Source: a candidate division Kazan bacterium RIFCSPHIGHO2_01_FULL_44_14 (GTDB taxonomy: Bacteria; Patescibacteriota; Kazan-3B-28). Taken from it: DNA of 64,000 bases. Under the pieces are notes generated by a model. It had not been told where the DNA came from. It was given only the letters and a program-made list of their open reading frames with translations, and searched no databases. The stretch is taken from the NCBI GenBank assembly GCA_001771185.1, contig METB01000001.1, positions 94,520 to 158,519 on the forward strand, given 5' to 3'. Shown here piece after piece: positions 404 to 59,538 of the stretch. The first letter of the stretch is position 1; each line of letters begins with the position of its first letter. Both the position numbers and the translations under genes were made by a program.

Positions 404-1165
404 CTATAAGCTATTGAGCTCTTTATACATTTTAGCCACCTCCTCTGCTATAGATTCATACTCATTTCTGCCCACGACTTCTCTAATCTGGTCAATGTAC
501 CGCGTAGTCAACCTAAGGTGAAACGTTAAACCCAAAAATAAACCCTGTTGCATATAAAGTCCGTTCATCATCTCTGATTCTTTCGGATCCAACATTCCCC
601 TCACCACCATAGGGTTTGGATGATTCAGCCTACTTCCCCAAATATAAGCCTGCCCTATACGAGAAAAATCGAAGTCATTCAAGCAATGCTTATCGTGTAG
701 AGCCTTGAGCATCATATCCGCACTTAGACCCGCCCAACTATGTCTACCGTCCTTCAAATAAGATGGCACTTTTTCATACGACTCTGCCAGAATAGCAGAT
801 GATACGTCCAAATTAAGTGCCTCCTCTTGGTCCTTACCGCCAATCGATTTCAAAAACTCACGATCTTGGGTTAATTGAACCCAAAGATAGTCTTGAAATT
901 CCTTGGCCTTTTTATCTCTACCCTTCATTAACATATATTCAACGGTAAGCGAATACTCGGTTAGCTTGCGAGCCAAGTCTAAAACGCTCGCCGCAGCCTC
1001 CGTATGAGTAGCAAGATAATTGATATCCCTTAGTGCGGAAAAGGACACCCGATATATCCCCAACAGAACAGTCAAAAAATCATCTTGCTCAGTTCTTGCC
1101 CCTTCCGCCAATGGCTGGGTCGCAACCAGTAGTCTAACAAGCAACGACTTGAACCTATTTATCAT
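404..1165 (-). CDS. Hypothetical protein (253 aa), second gene of a two-gene operon; no recognisable domain
   Basis: Long ORF with an 11-nt overlap with the upstream ORF 1155..1886 (operonic). The macro-domain gene lies 100 bp downstream on the same strand. No motif is recognisable by eye. Confidence 0.6.
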   Translation of the reverse strand: MINRFKSLLVRLLVATQPLAEGARTEQDDFLTVLLGIYRVSFSALRDINYLATHTEAAASVLDLARKLTEYSLTVEYMLMKGRDKKAKEFQDYLWVQLTQDREFLKSIGGKDQEEALNLDVSSAILAESYEKVPSYLKDGRHSWAGLSADMMLKALHDKHCLNDFDFSRIGQAYIWGSRLNHPNPMVVRGMLDPKESEMMNGLYMQQGLFLGLTFHLRLTTRYIDQIREVVGRNEYESIAEEVAKMYKELNSL

Positions 1166-1886
1166 TAGTCACGACCTCCGCCACATCTACAAATGGCTCA
1201 ATTCGAAGATGTTGGTAAAGCAAATCTCGTATATCCCCAAAAATCTGATCAAGTGCCCCATCAATCTGAACCTGATTACTGGCTGCTATGCCGATCCATC
1301 GCTTCTGGGCCAATTCAAAAGATTCTACTATTTTACGCTTAAAGTGATCCACTGCTTCGGGTCGCATCCGATCTTTAAATGGTGAACTATCTCCCGATAC
1401 AGTAGCAAACACGCTTGCATCCACAAGATCCGCATCTGCAAACCGCATTCCCGTATGGTGATGCGGAACTCTGCACTCGGCTATCCCATTAAATACCTTA
1501 TAGAGTTGTCCTTTAATATGTTTAAGAGCCACCACCCACTCTTTGCCATTATTGGCCCGTCGTACATCTTTGGTTAGTACATCAAGAAAAGTTTTAACCT
1601 TATCCTTCAAACTATCAACGTCCTCTAGATAAGCATGGAGATGATGTTCGAGTGCCTCTGCACTGCTGATTTGCCCCGACTGATCGGGATAAAACTCGGT
1701 AAAATAAACTTCGTACCTTTTAACTTTTTTCAGAGCTTGGCTCAGAATCATAAGAAGTCCCAAGTACCTCTCCAACTCTCCATCATCCACACCAGTCTTA
1801 TCGATCCTGGTTATATACTGCTTCATTAGACACTCGGGATGAGCATAGACCATAACATCTGCAACTACCTTGTCAAAATTATTCAT
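1155..1886 (-). CDS. Hypothetical protein (243 aa), first gene of the two-gene operon; no recognisable domain
   Basis: Long ORF starting at ATG 1886 (MNNFDKVV...). It overlaps the downstream ORF by 11 nt. It sits inside a defence-island context. Confidence 0.6.
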   Translation of the reverse strand: MNNFDKVVADVMVYAHPECLMKQYITRIDKTGVDDGELERYLGLLMILSQALKKVKRYEVYFTEFYPDQSGQISSAEALEHHLHAYLEDVDSLKDKVKTFLDVLTKDVRRANNGKEWVVALKHIKGQLYKVFNGIAECRVPHHHTGMRFADADLVDASVFATVSGDSSPFKDRMRPEAVDHFKRKIVESFELAQKRWIGIAASNQVQIDGALDQIFGDIRDLLYQHLRIEPFVDVAEVVTNDK

Positions 1887-2010: not shown

Positions 2011-3180
2011 TCAACGATTTCCTTTTGCTCTATTATGCGTCTTACATAACATCTCACAGTTTTTGGCCGCCGTTTCGCCACCCTTACTCCATGCCGTTAC
2101 ATGATCTGCGTCCATTTCGTCTAACTTCCAAATCTTACTCTTGCTGGCATCATGTCCAATAGCACAATATGGACAGTTTGATTTACCTTGAGCTTCAGCC
2201 CTAGCAGTCTGTGTTGAATAAACAGCCTTCTTGGTCGCCTCATCAAAAACTCGAACATCGATCAATTTTGTGTCAATGGACCCACCGAGAATATACTCAA
2301 AAATGCCTTTGCGATTTTTGATGTACGGATCGCCATAGAGCTTATGCACCTCGGCTGATACTTTGGCTGGGTTGTATGATTTTTTGTGATACTCCTCGTA
2401 AAGTCGTCCCCATTCAAGCCCACGCATTTCGCTTTCTACGTCAGTAAATACGCTAGATACCCAATCAATGACGGTATTAAAATATTTTTTCAGCTCATCA
2501 ATATTTTTGTCTTTGCGATGCTTGCTCATGTAGTCGCCAATATTGCCTTTGCTTACCCAATCAAGAGCACATTCCAAAAATTCTTGCCTGTTGGCACTAC
2601 CTGATACATACGCACTCCATTTTTGAATATTGGCGTTTTGGCTATTACTGAATTCCTCTTTAGCTCTAGTTACGAACGGGCCGGAATACACGGCGTTGAG
2701 TAATTCCTGATTATTGAGCGGAACACCAGCAATATTGATTGTCTTAAACCATTCTTTTATCTGACTTTCTGTCCCTTCACACTCGTAAATGAGCAGTTTC
2801 GTTTCCAAAATTTTGACTTGCTTGTCTTTTGCCATACCGCCATAATATTGCTCCATGCCATTTTCGTCTTTGATGGCAAATTTGTCGGTGATAAATCGTC
2901 CGAGACTAGTGATGCGCTGTTGCCCGTCTAAGACTTCTAGGTTGTCGTCAGAAACTTTGTTGAAATAAATCAATCCTATCGGGTATCCTTTGAGAATTGA
3001 TTCAATAACGGCCATTTCTCTTTTGCCTCCGTCAGAAGCATAGATATAATTACGCTGATACTCTGGCTGAATCGTTAGTTTGCCGGATAAGCCAAACAAA
3101 CCCTTGCCTTCAAGTTCGTTATAGACGAACCCATCACAAATATCTTTGACTGTGGTGCTAGTCTTAAGTGTTGTTTTCAT
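2011..3180 (-). CDS. DUF262 (ParB/Srx-like, DGQQR motif) N-terminal domain fused to a C-terminal HNH nuclease; putative restriction-type endonuclease
   Basis: Motifs [11 protein letters not shown] and [10 protein letters not shown] are the DUF262 QR and DGQQR signatures. The C-terminus CPYCAIGHD...[10 protein letters not shown]...[15 protein letters not shown] is an HNH motif (CxxC...H...N...H). The start lies 4 nt after the upstream methyltransferase stop. Confidence 0.8.
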
Positions 3181-3184
3181 ATTA

Positions 3185-4282
3185 TTATTTCTTACGTCTT
3201 ATAAAAACTCGCTTAAAAGTTTCCTTGCCACTAATATGTGATCCGCGACCGTAAATTCTATTTGGATCTTGATCTATGCCTCGATTCGATCCAAGCAATT
3301 CAAACTGATCTGGATTATATTTATCTAAAAAACTGACAGGAACACCCATCACACCATCATAATCGCTTGGAATGGCATCGGTAAACGGAATTTCAATGGC
3401 ATCGTAGTTATCGTACTTATCATAAGATTTTTTGCCTTTAATCTCTTTGTGCTTGCTGTATTTTAAGTTCTCCTCCATTGTCATAAGTGGCAATATTTGG
3501 TGACGACGCCCATGATCAAGATTGGTAAACCAACAACAGTTTCTGAATTTCACCAAGCCAGTTTCTGGGTCATACACCCCGCCCGCATATTCTCTAGTAA
3601 TAGGCGTAGAAAAATAAGCGTTGCCAGCATTAAAGCCATTTCCTAACCACATTTTATTTTCTTTTATCAATGGAAATATTTCCTTGTAAATAATCGCACT
3701 TAGGTTACCAATGATAACGAATTTTTTATGATACTCAAAAAGCTGCTTCACATATTCACGAAATAGACTGAACGGCGGATTAGTTACCACAATATCGGAT
3801 TGTTCTAGTAATTTTATGCACTCGGGACCTCTAAAATCGCCATCTTTCTCAAGCGGCGTCCATTCATTATTTCTGTTTGCCCTTAACTGTTTGGCAATAT
3901 CTTTCAAGTTGAACTCACCGTCGCCGTCTATGTCCTTCACTTCGTTGATAATAAATTTGTTGGCGGTTACCTTTGGGCGGCCTTTTGCTTTTACAAGCGT
4001 TTTGTCATCACCAAACAAGCCTAATTGCGTGTTAGCAACAGGCGACGGCTTATAACTAGTTGTAATGAGCCGTTTTAATCCAAGCTTATTAAAATTGAGC
4101 ACAAAATAACGAAAAAAATTGCTCTCAAACGGATCATCGCAATTACAATACACCACCTGATCTCGAAACACATTGGGATTATATTCCAGATACGCCGAAA
4201 TCTCTTTTTGGATATCGCTATATTGGGTATAAAACTCATCGTTCTTTACCCTTTTTGCATTCGTAAGATTACTGTTTGCCAT
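3185..4282 (-). CDS. Putative N6-adenine DNA methyltransferase (gamma-class order: FYT motif X, then NPPF motif IV)
   Basis: NDEFYTQ near the N-terminus and IVVTNPPFS (the NPPF catalytic motif) are present. It is immediately upstream of and co-directional with the DUF262-HNH gene. Motif I is atypical ([12 protein letters not shown]), hence the moderate confidence. Confidence 0.65.
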
Positions 4283-4438
4283 AGTACATCCCGATAGTAC
4301 TCCAATATAAAATCCTCTTCTAAAGCCAGTTTTTGACTCCTTTAGTATAACTCAAAATAAGGCTTATTGGGACTGGACTTCGAGCCCCCTTCGGGCATCC
4401 TTACTCTGGTATAGACCGATAGACAAATGGAGGTGAAT

Positions 4439-5776
4439 ATGGCGCAAAACGAAGCGGTTTTAGAGACCCCAGAGGGGACCAGAGAAGCTCCCCAAGCAGA
4501 AGTTGGGAGATACTGCCTCTATGCCCGAAAGTCATCCGAATCGGACGAAAGACAGGCCTTATCCATCGACTCCCAAATCAAAGAGATGATGGCTATCGCC
4601 GAACGGGATGGTATTGAGGTGGTCGAGACAATCAGAGAGAGCCATTCAGCTAAGGATTCCGGCCAAAGACCGGAGTTTATGGAGCTTTTAAGGCGAATCA
4701 GAGAACAAGAGTTCAATGGAATTCTCACTTGGGCTCCCGACAGACTTTCGAGAAATGCAGGGGATTTGGGAGATCTGGTGGATATGATGGACCAAGGATT
4801 GCTGAAACACATCAAGACACCTAGCCAGATATTTAGGAATTCCCCCAATGAGAAATTCCTTTTAATGATTCTGTGCAGTCAGGCAAAGTTGGAAAATGAT
4901 AATCGAGGCATCAATGTAAAACGCGGAATGAAAAATAAATGCGACATGGGTTGGATGCCGTGTCTCCCTCCGCTTGGTTATCTGAACGATAAAGCAAATC
5001 ACACAATCATTGTCGATGCAGAACGAGCTCCGTTTATTAAAGAAGCATTTAATAAAGTCGCCGAGGAAGGCTATACCGGCAGAGCGTTATGGAGTTGGTT
5101 TAATAAAGAAACAGAATTTACAACCAGAGCGGGAAAGAAGATGGCTCTAAGTATGGTTCACAATATGCTGAGAAATCATTTTTACTACGGCCAGTTTATG
5201 CACGGCGGAGTAATGCACCAAGGTAAACATGAACCGCTGATTACAAAAGAGCTGTTTGATAAAGTCAGAGAAGCCATGCAAAAAGGCCCTCGGGGCAGAT
5301 ATGGCGAAAAAATGTTCGCCTTCACTCGAATGATAACCTGCGGAAGATGCGAACTTGGAATAACAGCTGAAGAAAAAGTTAAAAAGCTAAAAAATGGAGA
5401 AGGCCGACGACATGTCTACTACCATTGCAGCGGGTTTGGCAAATATCGATGTAAAGAGGGCTGGATGCGAGAAGCCGACCTTATTGAGCAATTTGTTGAG
5501 CTAATAGATGGAATGGATATCAACCGAATTGGAATGAGAGAGAAACTCCAAGAAGAAATTGAACGATACAATCGCTTCACCACCGGAGTACTCGGTATGA
5601 ATCCCGACACTTCCCCAATTCCCAGAGTAGACCTTAAAATGTACGCGAAATATATCTTGAGAGATGGTAGTCCAGAAGAAAAGCGAGAAATATTAAAGAA
5701 CATCAAAAACAAGGTGGTGCTGCACGATGGAAAACTATCGCTACAAAACACTCCGGAGTTAATTGAGCCCATCTAA
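4439..5776 (+). CDS. Large serine recombinase / serine integrase (resolvase catalytic domain, recombinase domain, zinc-ribbon)
   Basis: YCLYARKSSESDERQALSIDSQ is the resolvase catalytic-Ser motif. The protein is ~445 aa with a Cys-rich region (CGRCE...HCSGFGKYRC). GGAGGTG lies 5 nt before the ATG at 4439; an alternative in-frame ATG is at 4427. Confidence 0.85.
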   Translation: MAQNEAVLETPEGTREAPQAEVGRYCLYARKSSESDERQALSIDSQIKEMMAIAERDGIEVVETIRESHSAKDSGQRPEFMELLRRIREQEFNGILTWAPDRLSRNAGDLGDLVDMMDQGLLKHIKTPSQIFRNSPNEKFLLMILCSQAKLENDNRGINVKRGMKNKCDMGWMPCLPPLGYLNDKANHTIIVDAERAPFIKEAFNKVAEEGYTGRALWSWFNKETEFTTRAGKKMALSMVHNMLRNHFYYGQFMHGGVMHQGKHEPLITKELFDKVREAMQKGPRGRYGEKMFAFTRMITCGRCELGITAEEKVKKLKNGEGRRHVYYHCSGFGKYRCKEGWMREADLIEQFVELIDGMDINRIGMREKLQEEIERYNRFTTGVLGMNPDTSPIPRVDLKMYAKYILRDGSPEEKREILKNIKNKVVLHDGKLSLQNTPELIEPI

Positions 5777-5892: not shown

Positions 5893-7404
5893 TTATGCCT
5901 CGTTCTCTGGGGATAGTGAAACAAAGAGTTCGTAAAGTTTCTGAAATTTCTCACCAAATATTCGCCCAATCCTATTCCTTCTTATGGCATCCTGCAAATA
6001 CGACTCAGCATATGCTAATTCGGATTTTCGTCCAATGAGTTTCTTGAGTAGTGGCTTGCCAGAAGTTAATTTTAATATAGCAGTGTCGATTTTTGTCTTA
6101 GCCACATTTGACATAGTTTTCCAGACTGGGTCTTGAGACGATGCCATCTTGGATTTAATAGTTGACTGTACATTACTTTTGGTTACCCCCAGTACAGCAG
6201 ATACGATATCTAAATCGTACATAAGACACCCCTCCATGTCATACTGAGCCAACTTAATGAAGTGATTATCTCCTGGAAATTTGTCTGGCTGGTTATCACC
6301 ATCAGTCAAAAAAGAAACATTCGTAATAACAGAGGGTATGGAATTGCTAGCAAATAATTTATAGGCACTTTCTACTCCACCTTTTGCATTGTGTACCTCA
6401 ATCACATCAACAAGCTTTTGTGCACCCGAAATTTTTGCCAATGTCTCGATAACTATTTTATGGATATGGTCTTCTACAAAAACCACATGATTCCCCGATG
6501 GGTCATTAACTATCTTGAATACTCGCGTCCTGAGAGCATCTATTGTTTCTGATGTGGGGTTGCTAGATATTGCAAAGTGTTTAGCCTTACGGTTAATTTC
6601 CAGGAACTTAGAAATATTTTTATAGCCCTCTTCAAACACAATCATTGAATGAGTTGCTACCACAATTTGCTTATCGTATTCTTTGGCGAACCAATTTAAA
6701 TAGTCAAAAAAATACTTCTCGAACGACCAATTCAGATGTATCTCAGGTTCGTCTATAAGAAAAACATCATATTCATCACGTGCTTCATAAAGTTGGAATG
6801 CTAGAGATATGGATTCAGTCTCGCCTACACTCAATTGGTCTGTTGTAACTTTAAGAAAGCCAAACTTTTTTATGACAAAATCAGGAACATCCGCCTCCTC
6901 AAGTTTTAGGTCAACTATCTGATATTCGCTATATAATCGTCTCAGAATATTATTAAACTCTCTTACGGTACGCTTAAGAATGGTTATTTGGTCAACGCCT
7001 TCAGGTGTCACATTGCGCGCTTCGTGATAATGATACAAAACGATATCCGAAAATGGCGGATAGGTTTGATGGGATAGCTCTTCTAGTTTGCGATTATAGG
7101 CATTTTTTAAGTCATCCTTAATCTTACGTTGACTAGAAAATATCTCTTGTACACTTTGCTTAAATTTCCTTATTTCGATGCTTCGACTTGGGCTGTAAAC
7201 GGCAACCCTAAGGCCGGCCTGTCTAGATTGTTGCTCAATCTCAGATAAGAGTTTGCTTTTCCCGGAACCATTAATACCAGAGATAAGATTCAAGTGGGGA
7301 TTAAGATCGACGATTAGCCCATGCAAAAAATCTAACCCCTCGAGGTCTTTATAACCACTTGTAGTAGCACTTGCTAAAAATTTTACCAATCCGTCTTCAT
7401 TCAT
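5893..7404 (-). CDS. OLD-family nuclease (N-terminal ABC-type ATPase, C-terminal TOPRIM), stand-alone (class 1 OLD / GajA-like without an adjacent helicase)
   Basis: Walker A is LISGINGSGKSKLL, signature-like QLSVGE, Walker B VFLIDEPEIHLN. The TOPRIM motifs are HVVFVEDHIHKIVIE (conserved Glu) and SFLTDGDNQ (DxD). No UvrD-like partner gene is adjacent. Confidence 0.8.
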   Translation of the reverse strand: MNEDGLVKFLASATTSGYKDLEGLDFLHGLIVDLNPHLNLISGINGSGKSKLLSEIEQQSRQAGLRVAVYSPSRSIEIRKFKQSVQEIFSSQRKIKDDLKNAYNRKLEELSHQTYPPFSDIVLYHYHEARNVTPEGVDQITILKRTVREFNNILRRLYSEYQIVDLKLEEADVPDFVIKKFGFLKVTTDQLSVGETESISLAFQLYEARDEYDVFLIDEPEIHLNWSFEKYFFDYLNWFAKEYDKQIVVATHSMIVFEEGYKNISKFLEINRKAKHFAISSNPTSETIDALRTRVFKIVNDPSGNHVVFVEDHIHKIVIETLAKISGAQKLVDVIEVHNAKGGVESAYKLFASNSIPSVITNVSFLTDGDNQPDKFPGDNHFIKLAQYDMEGCLMYDLDIVSAVLGVTKSNVQSTIKSKMASSQDPVWKTMSNVAKTKIDTAILKLTSGKPLLKKLIGRKSELAYAESYLQDAIRRNRIGRIFGEKFQKLYELFVSLSPENEA

Positions 7405-7561
7405 TGTTTTATCAATTTGTCACAGCATTAGAATCAATCGACCGGACGCCACCATTCTAACACCAAAAAAGCCCCTTTGAAGGGTCTTCCTTGGAATATA
7501 TTTCTCACGCTTTTTTTATCGAGCTTACTAGGCAAGACGGTCACTTTGCCATTGTAGCTCT

Positions 7562-7635
7562 TGGCTGGGACGGAAGGACTCGAACCTTCGATCATGGGAC
7601 CAGAACCCATTGCCTTACCACTTGGCTACGTCCCA
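7562..7635 (-). tRNA. tRNA-Gln (anticodon CTG)
   Basis: A manual cloverleaf works. The acceptor TGGGACG/CGTCCCA has the U1:A72 pair, the D-stem is GCC/GGC, the anticodon stem is ATGGG/CCCAT with loop TTCTGGT, the T-arm is GAAGG-TTCGAGT-CCTTC, and the 3' end is an encoded GCCA. Confidence 0.8.
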
Positions 7636-7984
7636 CTAATAAGGCGTGAAAAAATAGTTTATCAATAAATTTGGTACGGAACCCGCCTACGCTCTACGAG
7701 CTTCGGAACGGGCAGGCAGGCGCCATCCGTTGTCTTATTTACCCCCGTAGCGAACTTCGCTCTGTTTCGGGGCCACTTGTCTGCCTGCCGATAGGCAGGG
7801 CTACACCCCATCACAATGAGTATTGAGTATAGAGAATTGGGTTATGAGTGTGAAGAGGGGTATCTGGAATTAGTGCAACCCCTCGGTCCTGCTGGACAGC
7901 AGGACTCGGGGAAACAAGGTTTATGTTTTAGTTTCTAGCTAGTCCAATTATCAGACATCTACCATGTCCGAAAGTATAAACCGA

Positions 7985-40843: not shown

Positions 40844-40892
40844 TGGCAGACCGTGGTGGAGCCTGCCTGCCGGTAGGCAGGGAAGTTAGAAC
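40844..40892. repeat. Intergenic repeat family R1, copy a (others at 41957..42008 and truncated at 46343..46372)
   Basis: tggcagaccgtggtggag-cctgcctgccggtaggcagg-gaagttag; the embedded hairpin is CCTGCC..GGCAGG. Confidence 0.7.
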
Positions 40893-41956: not shown

Positions 41957-42008
41957 TGGCAGACCGTGGTGGAGCCTGCCTGCCGGTAGGCAGGGAAGTT
42001 AGGACTAC
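41957..42008. repeat. R1 repeat copy b
   Basis: tggcagaccgtggtggagcctgcctgccggtaggcagggaagttagg is identical to copy a over 46 nt. Confidence 0.7.
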
Positions 42009-58770: not shown

Positions 58771-59538
58771 TCAAGATTTAGGGCTCCCAATGAGCGTTTC
58801 CAAAGGAGTAATCACCTCGTACCCCTGGTCGGTCACCAAAACGGTATGTTCAAACTCGGCGACCGGTTTACCATCGGCTGTCCTGACACTCCAGTCATCT
58901 GCTTCGGTAATGGTCTCTTCATCGCCCAGACCAACAATCGGCTCAATGGCAAGGGCCGTCCCGGCGATTAGAGTTGGACTGGAGCCAGGAGTAGTAAAGT
59001 TAGGAATCATCGGGTTCTCGTGAAGCCGATGGCCTACCCCATGCCCGACAAACTGACGGAAAATGGTTAGCCCCTTGCCTGTGAGAGTTTTTTCAATGGC
59101 GCCGGAGACAGCGCTGACCTTGGCACCGGACCTGACTTCACTAGTCCCAGCCAACAGCGCCGCGTAGGCACCGTCCATTAATCGTTTTACAATCGGACTA
59201 ACTTGCCCAACCGCCCAAGTCACCGCCGCATCAGTATGCAGACCGCGATAATACAAACCCATGTCAACTGTGATAATATCGCCTGCCTGCAAAACCGTGT
59301 CGCTGGGAATACAATGAACTACTTGGTCATTCACGCAGAGACAAACTGGTGCCGGATATCCTTCAAATCCCTGGAACGATGGCAGACCACCTTGGCGTTT
59401 AGCTTCAGTTTCAGCCAAACGAGACAAAGTTTGTAAGTTGGTTCCAGGTTTTATTTCCCGGCGCAGTCGTTCCAGAATTAAGACCAGACGACGTCCTCCC
59501 TCCCGCAGATCGGCAATTTCTTCGTCAGTCAATTTCAT
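58771..59538 (-). CDS. map: Methionine aminopeptidase (type I)
   Basis: Pita-bread fold motifs (DMGLYYRGLHTDAAVTW, HGVGHRLHE); it follows adk in the conserved operon. Confidence 0.9.
   Translation of the reverse strand: MKLTDEEIADLREGGRRLVLILERLRREIKPGTNLQTLSRLAETEAKRQGGLPSFQGFEGYPAPVCLCVNDQVVHCIPSDTVLQAGDIITVDMGLYYRGLHTDAAVTWAVGQVSPIVKRLMDGAYAALLAGTSEVRSGAKVSAVSGAIEKTLTGKGLTIFRQFVGHGVGHRLHENPMIPNFTTPGSSPTLIAGTALAIEPIVGLGDEETITEADDWSVRTADGKPVAEFEHTVLVTDQGYEVITPLETLIGSPKS

Follow-up and report, generated by a model that had tools for sequence, protein, structure and literature searches.

What kind of protein is encoded by the gene at 5893..7404 (minus strand) of a 64,000-nucleotide stretch of DNA from candidate division Kazan bacterium RIFCSPHIGHO2_01_FULL_44_14, and what could it do for its host? 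The stretch (contig METB01000001.1, positions 94,520 to 158,519) is called the window below, and its coordinates are used for the gene and its neighbours. The initial annotation had taken the product for a solitary, class 1 nuclease of the OLD/GajA type. We found that the protein is an intact ABC ATPase followed by a TOPRIM domain in one polypeptide, and that both domains belong, among the branches of the OLD-like superfamily, to PARIS (AriA/AriB) and not to OLD/GajA. In our view, it is probably a self-contained phage-defence protein of the ABC-ATPase and TOPRIM superfamily, a compact chain of the PARIS branch with the motif spacing of HEC-04 (Hma-embedded candidate 04 of Escherichia coli MOD1-EC5853), which would unite sensor and effector. 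The defence function, trigger, substrate and oligomeric state given below are those that we infer for it.

The gene is an uninterrupted open reading frame (ORF) from ATG to stop, as seen in the ORF list and its translation, and the coordinates of the motifs were checked by translating it. A word-indexed search found only 12 relatives, with about 30% identity and 476-505 residues. The profile built from these 12 relatives was then searched against 1.84 billion representative proteins, and it gave 134 proteins at E ≤ 1e-30, about 80 of which were full-length (480-510 residues). A profile of the relatives scores the 503-residue ORF of the window at E 3e-158. Because of this score and of the homologues in the large search, the ORF is no chance feature. 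The parts of the gene are as follows, with conservation counted in an alignment of 72 homologous sequences.

5893..7404, minus strand: whole coding sequence, single-chain ABC ATPase with AriB-type TOPRIM domain, 503 residues plus stop (family profile, E as above)
6595..7404, minus strand: N-terminal compact ABC ATPase domain, residues 1-270 (Pfam AAA_15 and AAA_21; PADLOC AriA, 9.3e-18)
7255..7278, minus strand: Walker A, GINGSGKS (K49); G43, N45, G46 and K49 invariant, 72/72
6820..6834, minus strand: ABC signature, LSVGE (S192, G194, E195); S192 72/72, G194 71/72
6727..6765, minus strand: Walker B and D-loop, VFLIDEPEIHLNW (D218, E219); D218, E219, P220, E221 and H223 invariant
6646..6654, minus strand: H-loop, THS (H252); H252 72/72
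5896..6495, minus strand: C-terminal TOPRIM and helical domain of the DUF4435/AriB type, residues 304-503
6466..6486, minus strand: TOPRIM glutamate motif, VVFVEDH (E311, D312); both residues 72/72
6289..6309, minus strand: TOPRIM DxD motif, LTDGDNQ (D368, D370); D368 72/72, D370 71/72
6223..6243, minus strand: third acidic motif, YDMEGCL (E391); family consensus YCIENYL, the 'IENYL' motif of DUF4435 and merged PARIS (AriAB)

Taken together, the ATPase residues G43, N45, G46, K49, S192, D218, E219, P220, E221, H223 and H252 are invariant in the 72 sequences. E311, D312 and D368 of the TOPRIM domain are invariant too, position 370 is D in 71 of the 72, and position 391 is E in 69. In the third acidic motif the window copy keeps the glutamate, and G392 and C393 replace N and Y. 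The statement of the initial annotation that Walker A, Walker B, the TOPRIM glutamate and DxD are intact was therefore borne out: all four are present, their catalytic residues are invariant or nearly so among the 72 homologues, and a careful alignment shows no degeneration of the ATPase or TOPRIM catalytic residues in the window copy. Since this copy retains all of the invariant and near-invariant residues of both domains, an active enzyme is a reasonable prediction from its sequence. The predicted structure of the full-length protein has a mean predicted local distance difference test score (pLDDT) of 79.6. By the secondary structure of this model, the ATPase domain holds a helical insert of about 85 residues (residues 72-160), which would consist of four helices modelled at lower confidence.

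The placement on the PARIS branch comes from several comparisons. Pfam recognised only the ATPase in the window protein (AAA_15 and AAA_21). PF20469, the OLD-type TOPRIM family, matched neither the whole window protein nor its C-terminal half at E ≤ 10, and it was absent from the Pfam families listed for the 12 members. Of the TOPRIM-type families in Pfam, these members matched DUF4435 alone (PF14491, the AriB family), in 3 of the 12 and with a best E of 8.3e-7. With the PADLOC models, the window protein matched AriA best (9.3e-18) and then merged AriAB (2.6e-14, over residues 84-441), and its matches to GajA models were weaker and partial. The AriAB model matched 72 of the 72 members (best 3.3e-32). 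When the family profile was searched against PDB sequences, PARIS AriA came first (6.5e-14), followed by ATPases of retrons and of the Septu PtuA type, and the OLD protein of Thermus scotoductus (TsOLD) was found only at 5.4e-5.

Profile-profile comparison extended the likeness into the C-terminal half. The search of representative proteins had also returned proteins of 683-698 residues, which are bona fide merged PARIS (PADLOC AriAB, 1e-102 to 1e-186). Against seven of these bona fide AriAB proteins, hhalign aligned the family with a probability of 99.95 and E 5.2e-38 over 256 columns, which span the signature, Walker B, the H-loop, the linker, the TOPRIM glutamate, DxD and YCIENYL. With single sequences, the AriAB protein P0151 aligned at 1.6e-17 over 308 columns, including the helical region past the TOPRIM core, and the OLD-TOPRIM protein P0013 aligned at 4.7e-15 over 223 columns, with the alignment ending at DxD.

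Comparison of folds gave the same order. Whole-protein Foldseek searches were dominated by the ATPase domain, and their template-modelling scores (TM-scores) were low (0.15-0.32) because the domain arrangements differ. The C-terminal domain (residues 283-503) was therefore judged from a model of its own (pLDDT 88.6, predicted TM-score 0.86). In the Foldseek search of this domain against the PDB, AriB chains were the only matches with probability 1.00 (8ux9_A, E 7.4e-4, TM-score 0.56; 8v46_D, E 3.8e-3), and the next match had E 0.46. The published active site of AriB comprises E26, D30, D88, E90 and E122 (PMC11464382). We take it to correspond to E311 (with D312), D368, D370 and E391, a mapping made by order, spacing and the family alignment to merged AriAB (E444, D503/D505, E525) and not residue by residue. 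Profiles place the family on the PARIS branch by a clear margin, the fold by a moderate one.

The broad label OLD/GajA-like was thus too loose, for PF20469 is unmatched, the GajA matches are weak and partial, and both domains are nearest to PARIS; the classification by hidden Markov models against OLD, GajA and PARIS families, which the initial annotation had proposed as a check, put AriA and merged AriAB first and not OLD or GajA. The term class 1 stood in part: as a single gene the protein fits the operational definition, but by descent it belongs to the PARIS branch, which for some authors is class 4 of the OLD-like systems (PMC11464382). An AriB-like DUF4435 partner had been named as a finding that would speak against a solitary protein. 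There is no separate partner gene, but the module itself is present, fused in the same polypeptide.

The product could still be a true class 1 OLD: an ATP-dependent enzyme, encoded alone, that harms the DNA of phage or host as a nickase or exonuclease, like TsOLD and the Vibrio cholerae protein (Vc OLD). Like class 1 OLDs (P2 Old, TsOLD, Vc OLD), it is a single gene with an N-terminal ABC ATPase that includes Walker A, signature, Walker B and H-loop. However, the PF20469 signature of those proteins is absent, and DUF4435 takes its place as the only TOPRIM-type Pfam family. The ATPase profile favours AriA over TsOLD by about nine orders of magnitude, and of the PADLOC models it is AriAB that gives all 72 members their best score. 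In addition, AriB is the best fold match of the C-terminal domain, with 181 aligned residues against 125 for TsOLD; it is AriB that the helical region past the TOPRIM core follows. The whole-model Foldseek match to 6p74 reached a TM-score of only 0.24. According to a review, class 1 OLDs do not adjoin other defence genes, whereas members of the present family are often embedded in restriction-modification (R-M) operons, and for the window gene itself a place away from other defence genes is not supported. We regard a true class 1 OLD as unlikely. Gabija GajA, a class 2 OLD, was also considered and rejected: no GajB (UvrD/PcrA-like helicase) gene is adjacent in the window, and the protein has no full-length match to a GajA model that includes the helical insert in the TOPRIM domain.

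The family is sparse and widely scattered. Its members are rare and their clusters mostly singletons, and they occur in candidate phyla radiation bacteria, archaea, Acidobacteriota, Bacteroidota and Gammaproteobacteria. This patchy distribution points to horizontal transfer. In the source databases the members are unnamed or misnamed (one is labelled EcfA2, an ATPase of energy-coupling factor (ECF) transporters), which agrees with the earlier remark that such proteins are little characterised. The family probably lies under the reporting thresholds of defence-finder tools, and inventories of defence systems would therefore miss it.

To describe the company that the gene keeps, 29 non-redundant loci were collected from the window, metagenome contigs and GTDB genomes, and the neighbouring ORFs were clustered all against all. 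By this clustering, no partner gene is present in most of the 29 loci. In six of them (L005, L006, L007, L015, L024 and L027) the family gene stands in the order hsdS-gene-hsdR, where stop and start codons often overlap, and in L012 the order is hsdM-gene-hsdS; in total, 7 of the 29 lie inside type I R-M operons, and the window copy is not embedded. In L025, hsdM is 3.4 kb upstream of the family gene. Other defence-type neighbours include a SIR2 gene in L022 and, in L018, an enzyme with GmrSD_N and HNH domains, which is homologous to the product of 2011..3180 in the window and lies 0.8 kb from the family gene. A fusion of UvrD helicase and PD-(D/E)XK nuclease (1007 residues) is upstream in two loci (L011, 81-3104; L026, 428-2425), in L026 on the same strand as the family gene with a gap of 160 bp. 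The fusion may now and then pair with the family gene in a Gabija-like way, or it may just be a defence gene in the vicinity.

Such placement suggests, by analogy with PrrC and RloC, the same logic of a guard of the restriction system. These proteins also have an ABC-type NTPase head coupled to a nuclease, and they share the place between hsd genes that the family gene has in several loci. However, their nuclease domain is unrelated and is not a TOPRIM, and no membership was detected by sequence; the likeness is functional and contextual. A stricter version of the analogy would make the family a PrrC-like latent nuclease, which the R-M complex holds silent and a phage inhibitor frees, and which is not autonomous. 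The seven loci inside type I operons, with start and stop codons that often overlap those of hsdS and hsdR, agree with this, as do the GmrSD_N and HNH restriction enzyme near the gene in both the window and L018 and the precedent of PrrC/EcoprrI as it is cited in Payne et al. Against it, R-M genes are absent to a distance of about 4.5 kb in about two thirds of the 29 loci, and the R-M types vary, being mostly type I but type II-like in the window, where there are no hsd genes. Furthermore, HEC-04, which is equivalent in architecture, alone protected an E. coli strain without R-M (Payne et al., bioRxiv 10.1101/2024.01.29.577857). A nuclease that depends on an R-M complex thus seems to us quite improbable, and we retain a self-contained defence protein as the preferred reading.

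Meanwhile, the loci show how the family may travel. A large serine recombinase homologous to that of the window is found in 8 of the 29 loci. In three loci the 3' end of such a recombinase gene overlaps a tRNA (L001, 14616-14688, Asn; L010, 6049-6135, Leu; L013, 3965-4039, Glu), which suggests that the family gene is cargo of serine-recombinase islands directed to tRNA genes. In L003 (2773-7968), the homologue P0008 comes directly after genes of type IV secretion and conjugation (TrbC, TrbL, a TraC-like protein, a TraG-type ATPase and an M23 peptidase); conjugative elements are thus a further vehicle of the family.

There are also stand-alone proteins with a length of about 280-296 residues (P0114, P0116, P0123, P0124, P0128 and others). 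Their match to the family is confined to its C-terminal domain (E 1e-44 to 1e-36); they have about 90 extra residues at the N-terminus, and would be solo AriB-like TOPRIM proteins. In L073 (5001-5891), the sole locus of such a relative with usable flanks, there is no ATPase neighbour, and DinB and enoyl-CoA hydratase genes flank it. The idea that the family is a recent fusion of a two-gene PARIS is unsupported by this stand-alone relative without an ATPase neighbour.

In the window itself, the gene apparently lies in an island to the left of a tRNA-Gln gene. Its neighbours are as follows.

7562..7635, minus strand: tRNA-Gln
4427..5776, plus strand: large serine recombinase, convergent with the family gene (Pfam Resolvase, Recombinase and Zn_ribbon_recom)
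3185..4282, minus strand: adenine methyltransferase of the EcoRI family (Pfam 6.6e-123; PADLOC MTase_II 1e-100)
2011..3180, minus strand: GmrSD_N (DUF262) and HNH endonuclease (PADLOC REase_II 8e-83)
1155..1886, minus strand: protein of 243 residues with no match in Pfam, PADLOC or NCBIfam; overlaps the gene at 404..1165
404..1165, minus strand: protein with a weak match to DUF5677 (Pfam 1.4e-5, under the curated cut-off)

A recombinase and a tRNA are therefore the direct neighbours, just as the initial annotation had it, and no co-oriented gene adjoins the family gene. Unlike those of L001, L010 and L013, the recombinase of the window is not the gene next to the tRNA. The gene is also solitary, as had been proposed: neither a helicase gene nor a separate DUF4435 gene was found beside it or elsewhere in the 64-kb window, tblastn of the window with HsdR, HsdM, HsdS and UvrD-PD-(D/E)XK seeds gave no matches, also in the 56 kb outside the island, and the 29 loci have no conserved partner in common. 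The methyltransferase gene stands directly upstream of the GmrSD_N and HNH gene, and the two form a type II-like R-M pair about 1.6 kb from the family gene, with the recombinase gene between. The pairing of a GmrSD-type enzyme with a methylase is unusual because enzymes of this type usually cut modified DNA. The two genes at 404..1165 and 1155..1886 could be another defence or island module.

An ORF at 1 to about 330 (minus strand) runs off the left edge, and the left border of the island is therefore outside the window; by eye, its product resembles a Macro domain, which binds or hydrolyses ADP-ribose. In a search for direct repeats or attachment (att) sites at tRNA-Gln, no word of at least 14 bases from 7406-7640 recurs in the window, so that this search gave no borders for the island, as is expected for serine recombinases. 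A scan of the window for promoters and terminators gave counts not above the shuffled expectation, Rfam found only tRNAs, and the G+C content of the window is about 43%. In addition, a short GC-rich palindromic element, CCTGCCTACCGGCAGGCAGG, recurs at 7711-7722, 7770-7800, 40860-40871, 41973-41984 and 59280-59291. Its core, GGCAGGCAGGCG, occurs 5 times in the window with one mismatch allowed, where 0.11 would be expected. Three or more of the copies are located between ORFs of at least 200 residues and have about 40 bases in common, and the element may be a dispersed repeat, REP-like (repetitive extragenic palindromic) or terminator-like.

A role outside defence, be it housekeeping, maintenance of a mobile element (addiction or stability of the recombinase island) or a cell-cycle role like that of Cran1, or else an inactive window copy, is very improbable: it could draw on the serine recombinases near 8 of the 29 loci, the copy in a conjugative element, the divergence of the window copy at the ENY motif and the non-defence role of the archaeal OLD-family ATPase Cran1 (PMC12796447), but all catalytic residues of the window copy are intact, a patchy spread that points to horizontal transfer and mostly singleton clusters are typical of defence cargo and not of housekeeping, and the neighbours include R-M, SIR2 and other defence-type genes.

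How would a self-contained defence protein of this kind work? PARIS is thought to act through an ATPase scaffold that releases a separate nuclease, which then dimerises. In the window protein, the Walker A lysine and the Walker B glutamate are 170 residues apart (family median 175), in contrast to 354 in AriA (K39 to E393) and 309 in merged AriAB (K36 to E345), and so the scaffold insertions of AriA are largely missing. Since the nuclease is tethered and this scaffold is absent, release followed by dimerisation cannot apply unchanged. In AriA the insertions IS1 and IS2 build the coiled-coil blades, the hexamer and the pores to which a part in recognising the trigger is ascribed; sensing of Ocr by AriA depends on ATP, and AriB cuts tRNA-Lys, tRNA-Thr and tRNA-Asn in the anticodon arm (PMC11464382, PMC12409363). 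P2 Old, a class 1 OLD, severs the anticodon stem of tRNA-Thr (PMC12445682).

In the mechanism that we propose, the N-terminal ABC head would bind ATP (K49, E219, H252) and serve as the infection sensor. A phage product would alter the nucleotide-dependent conformation or dimerisation of the ABC heads. The trigger might be a phage protein that disarms restriction systems; such an anti-restriction trigger is plausible because of the genomic company of the family and its embedding. In known systems, the anti-restriction protein Ocr sets off PARIS and Stp sets off PrrC, and the logic of placing such genes inside restriction systems has been set out by Payne et al. (bioRxiv 10.1101/2024.01.29.577857). 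The conformational change, within the chain or within an oligomer, would then allow nucleic acid to be cut at the two-metal site of the C-terminal TOPRIM domain (E311/D312, D368/D370, E391). By analogy with AriB and P2 Old, the likeliest target would be the anticodon arm of a host tRNA, and its cutting would halt translation and abort the infection.

More specifically, we suggest, as a tentative possibility, an unrecognised 'mini-PARIS' family of single chains that has dispensed with the AriA scaffold, switches its TOPRIM domain within the chain or a dimer, and, from the place between hsdS and hsdR where it often lies, guards R-M systems by sensing phage anti-restriction proteins. It would cover about 80 clusters at 50% identity from candidate phyla radiation bacteria, archaea and several bacterial phyla.

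Several points weigh against the proposal of a PARIS-branch defence protein. No member of the family is more divergent than the window copy (at most 30% identity to any other), which has E-G-C where the family has E-N-Y. The window protein taken alone has no Pfam match on its C-terminal half, PF14491 included. In addition, the profile of the C-terminal domain found neither AriB nor OLD among PDB sequences, nor anything else that was significant, and for this reason the classification of that half rests on profile-profile and fold comparison. The ATPase is without about 140-185 of the residues of AriAB and AriA, so that trigger recognition through the hexamer pores of AriA is not transferable. 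The tRNA target is not assured either, for Vc OLD, a single-gene relative, is a DNA nickase (PMC12392090). Finally, there is no type I R-M system in the window, and the link to restriction here is the type II-like pair only.

The broad kind of system is known, for merged PARIS clades have been described and the compact single-chain HEC-04 has been validated. What is new is a distinct unannotated family that combines PARIS-type domains with a minimal architecture of the HEC-04 type, its recurrent embedding in type I R-M operons, and its carriage on serine-recombinase islands in lineages little studied for defence. An AriA-like head joined to an AriB-like nuclease without the scaffold insertions makes it possible to ask whether the nuclease has to be released or a switch inside one molecule suffices, and the window protein would be a much smaller model for structural work. 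Furthermore, that the gene repeatedly lies between hsdS and hsdR speaks for ABC-TOPRIM proteins as guards of restriction systems against phage inhibitors, and the family would extend this view to lineages such as candidate phyla radiation bacteria and archaea, in which few defence systems have been studied.

Among known systems, merged PARIS (AriAB) is the top-scoring family by PADLOC and hhalign, and AriA by sequence profile and AriB by fold are the nearest solved structures of the two domains. AriAB is likewise one polypeptide, with an AAA_15/21 ABC ATPase before a DUF4435-type TOPRIM domain. The DEPE-HLN motif, the TOPRIM glutamate, DxD and the glutamate of the downstream (C)IENYL motif are common to both; the HLN form of Walker B and D-loop is that of the AriAB consensus DEPELHLNP, E311 aligns with the glutamate of the AriAB VEG motif, and D368/D370 align with D503/D505. 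However, the window protein is about 190 residues shorter than the AriAB proteins of 683-698 residues. It covers positions 198-561 of the 694 of the PADLOC AriAB model, about half, at E 2.6e-14, and is no full-length match, whereas true members reach 1e-102 to 1e-186 along the entire model. The window protein has VED instead of VEG as its TOPRIM motif, and E525-N526-Y527-L528, invariant in AriAB, is changed in the window copy as described above.

HEC-04 is also a single ATPase-TOPRIM protein, and it protects E. coli. It was found embedded inside another defence operon, in Hma systems (bioRxiv 10.1101/2024.01.29.577857). Homology to it is remote (PADLOC PDLC04149, E 1.6e-8, 31.6 bits, residues 141-444; hhalign, E 2.2e-11). 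The HEC-04 model is outside the 25 PADLOC models that match most of the 72 members, and HEC-04 aligns with AriAB over the ATPase only (E 1.5e-5). Judged by sequence, the window family is not the HEC-04 family itself. Nevertheless, the spacing of the motifs, compared over the first 399 residues of HEC-04 only, is nearly identical: K62, E239, H272, E319 and D375/D377 in HEC-04 stand against K49, E219, H252, E311 and D368/D370 in the window protein. E311 aligns with E319 and D368/D370 with D375/D377, and the motif forms FVED and DGD are common to the two proteins. In HEC-04, both the K62A mutant and the E319A/D375A/D377A mutant abolish defence (Payne et al. 2024, bioRxiv 10.1101/2024.01.29.577857), and these residues are the counterparts of those that the window protein retains.

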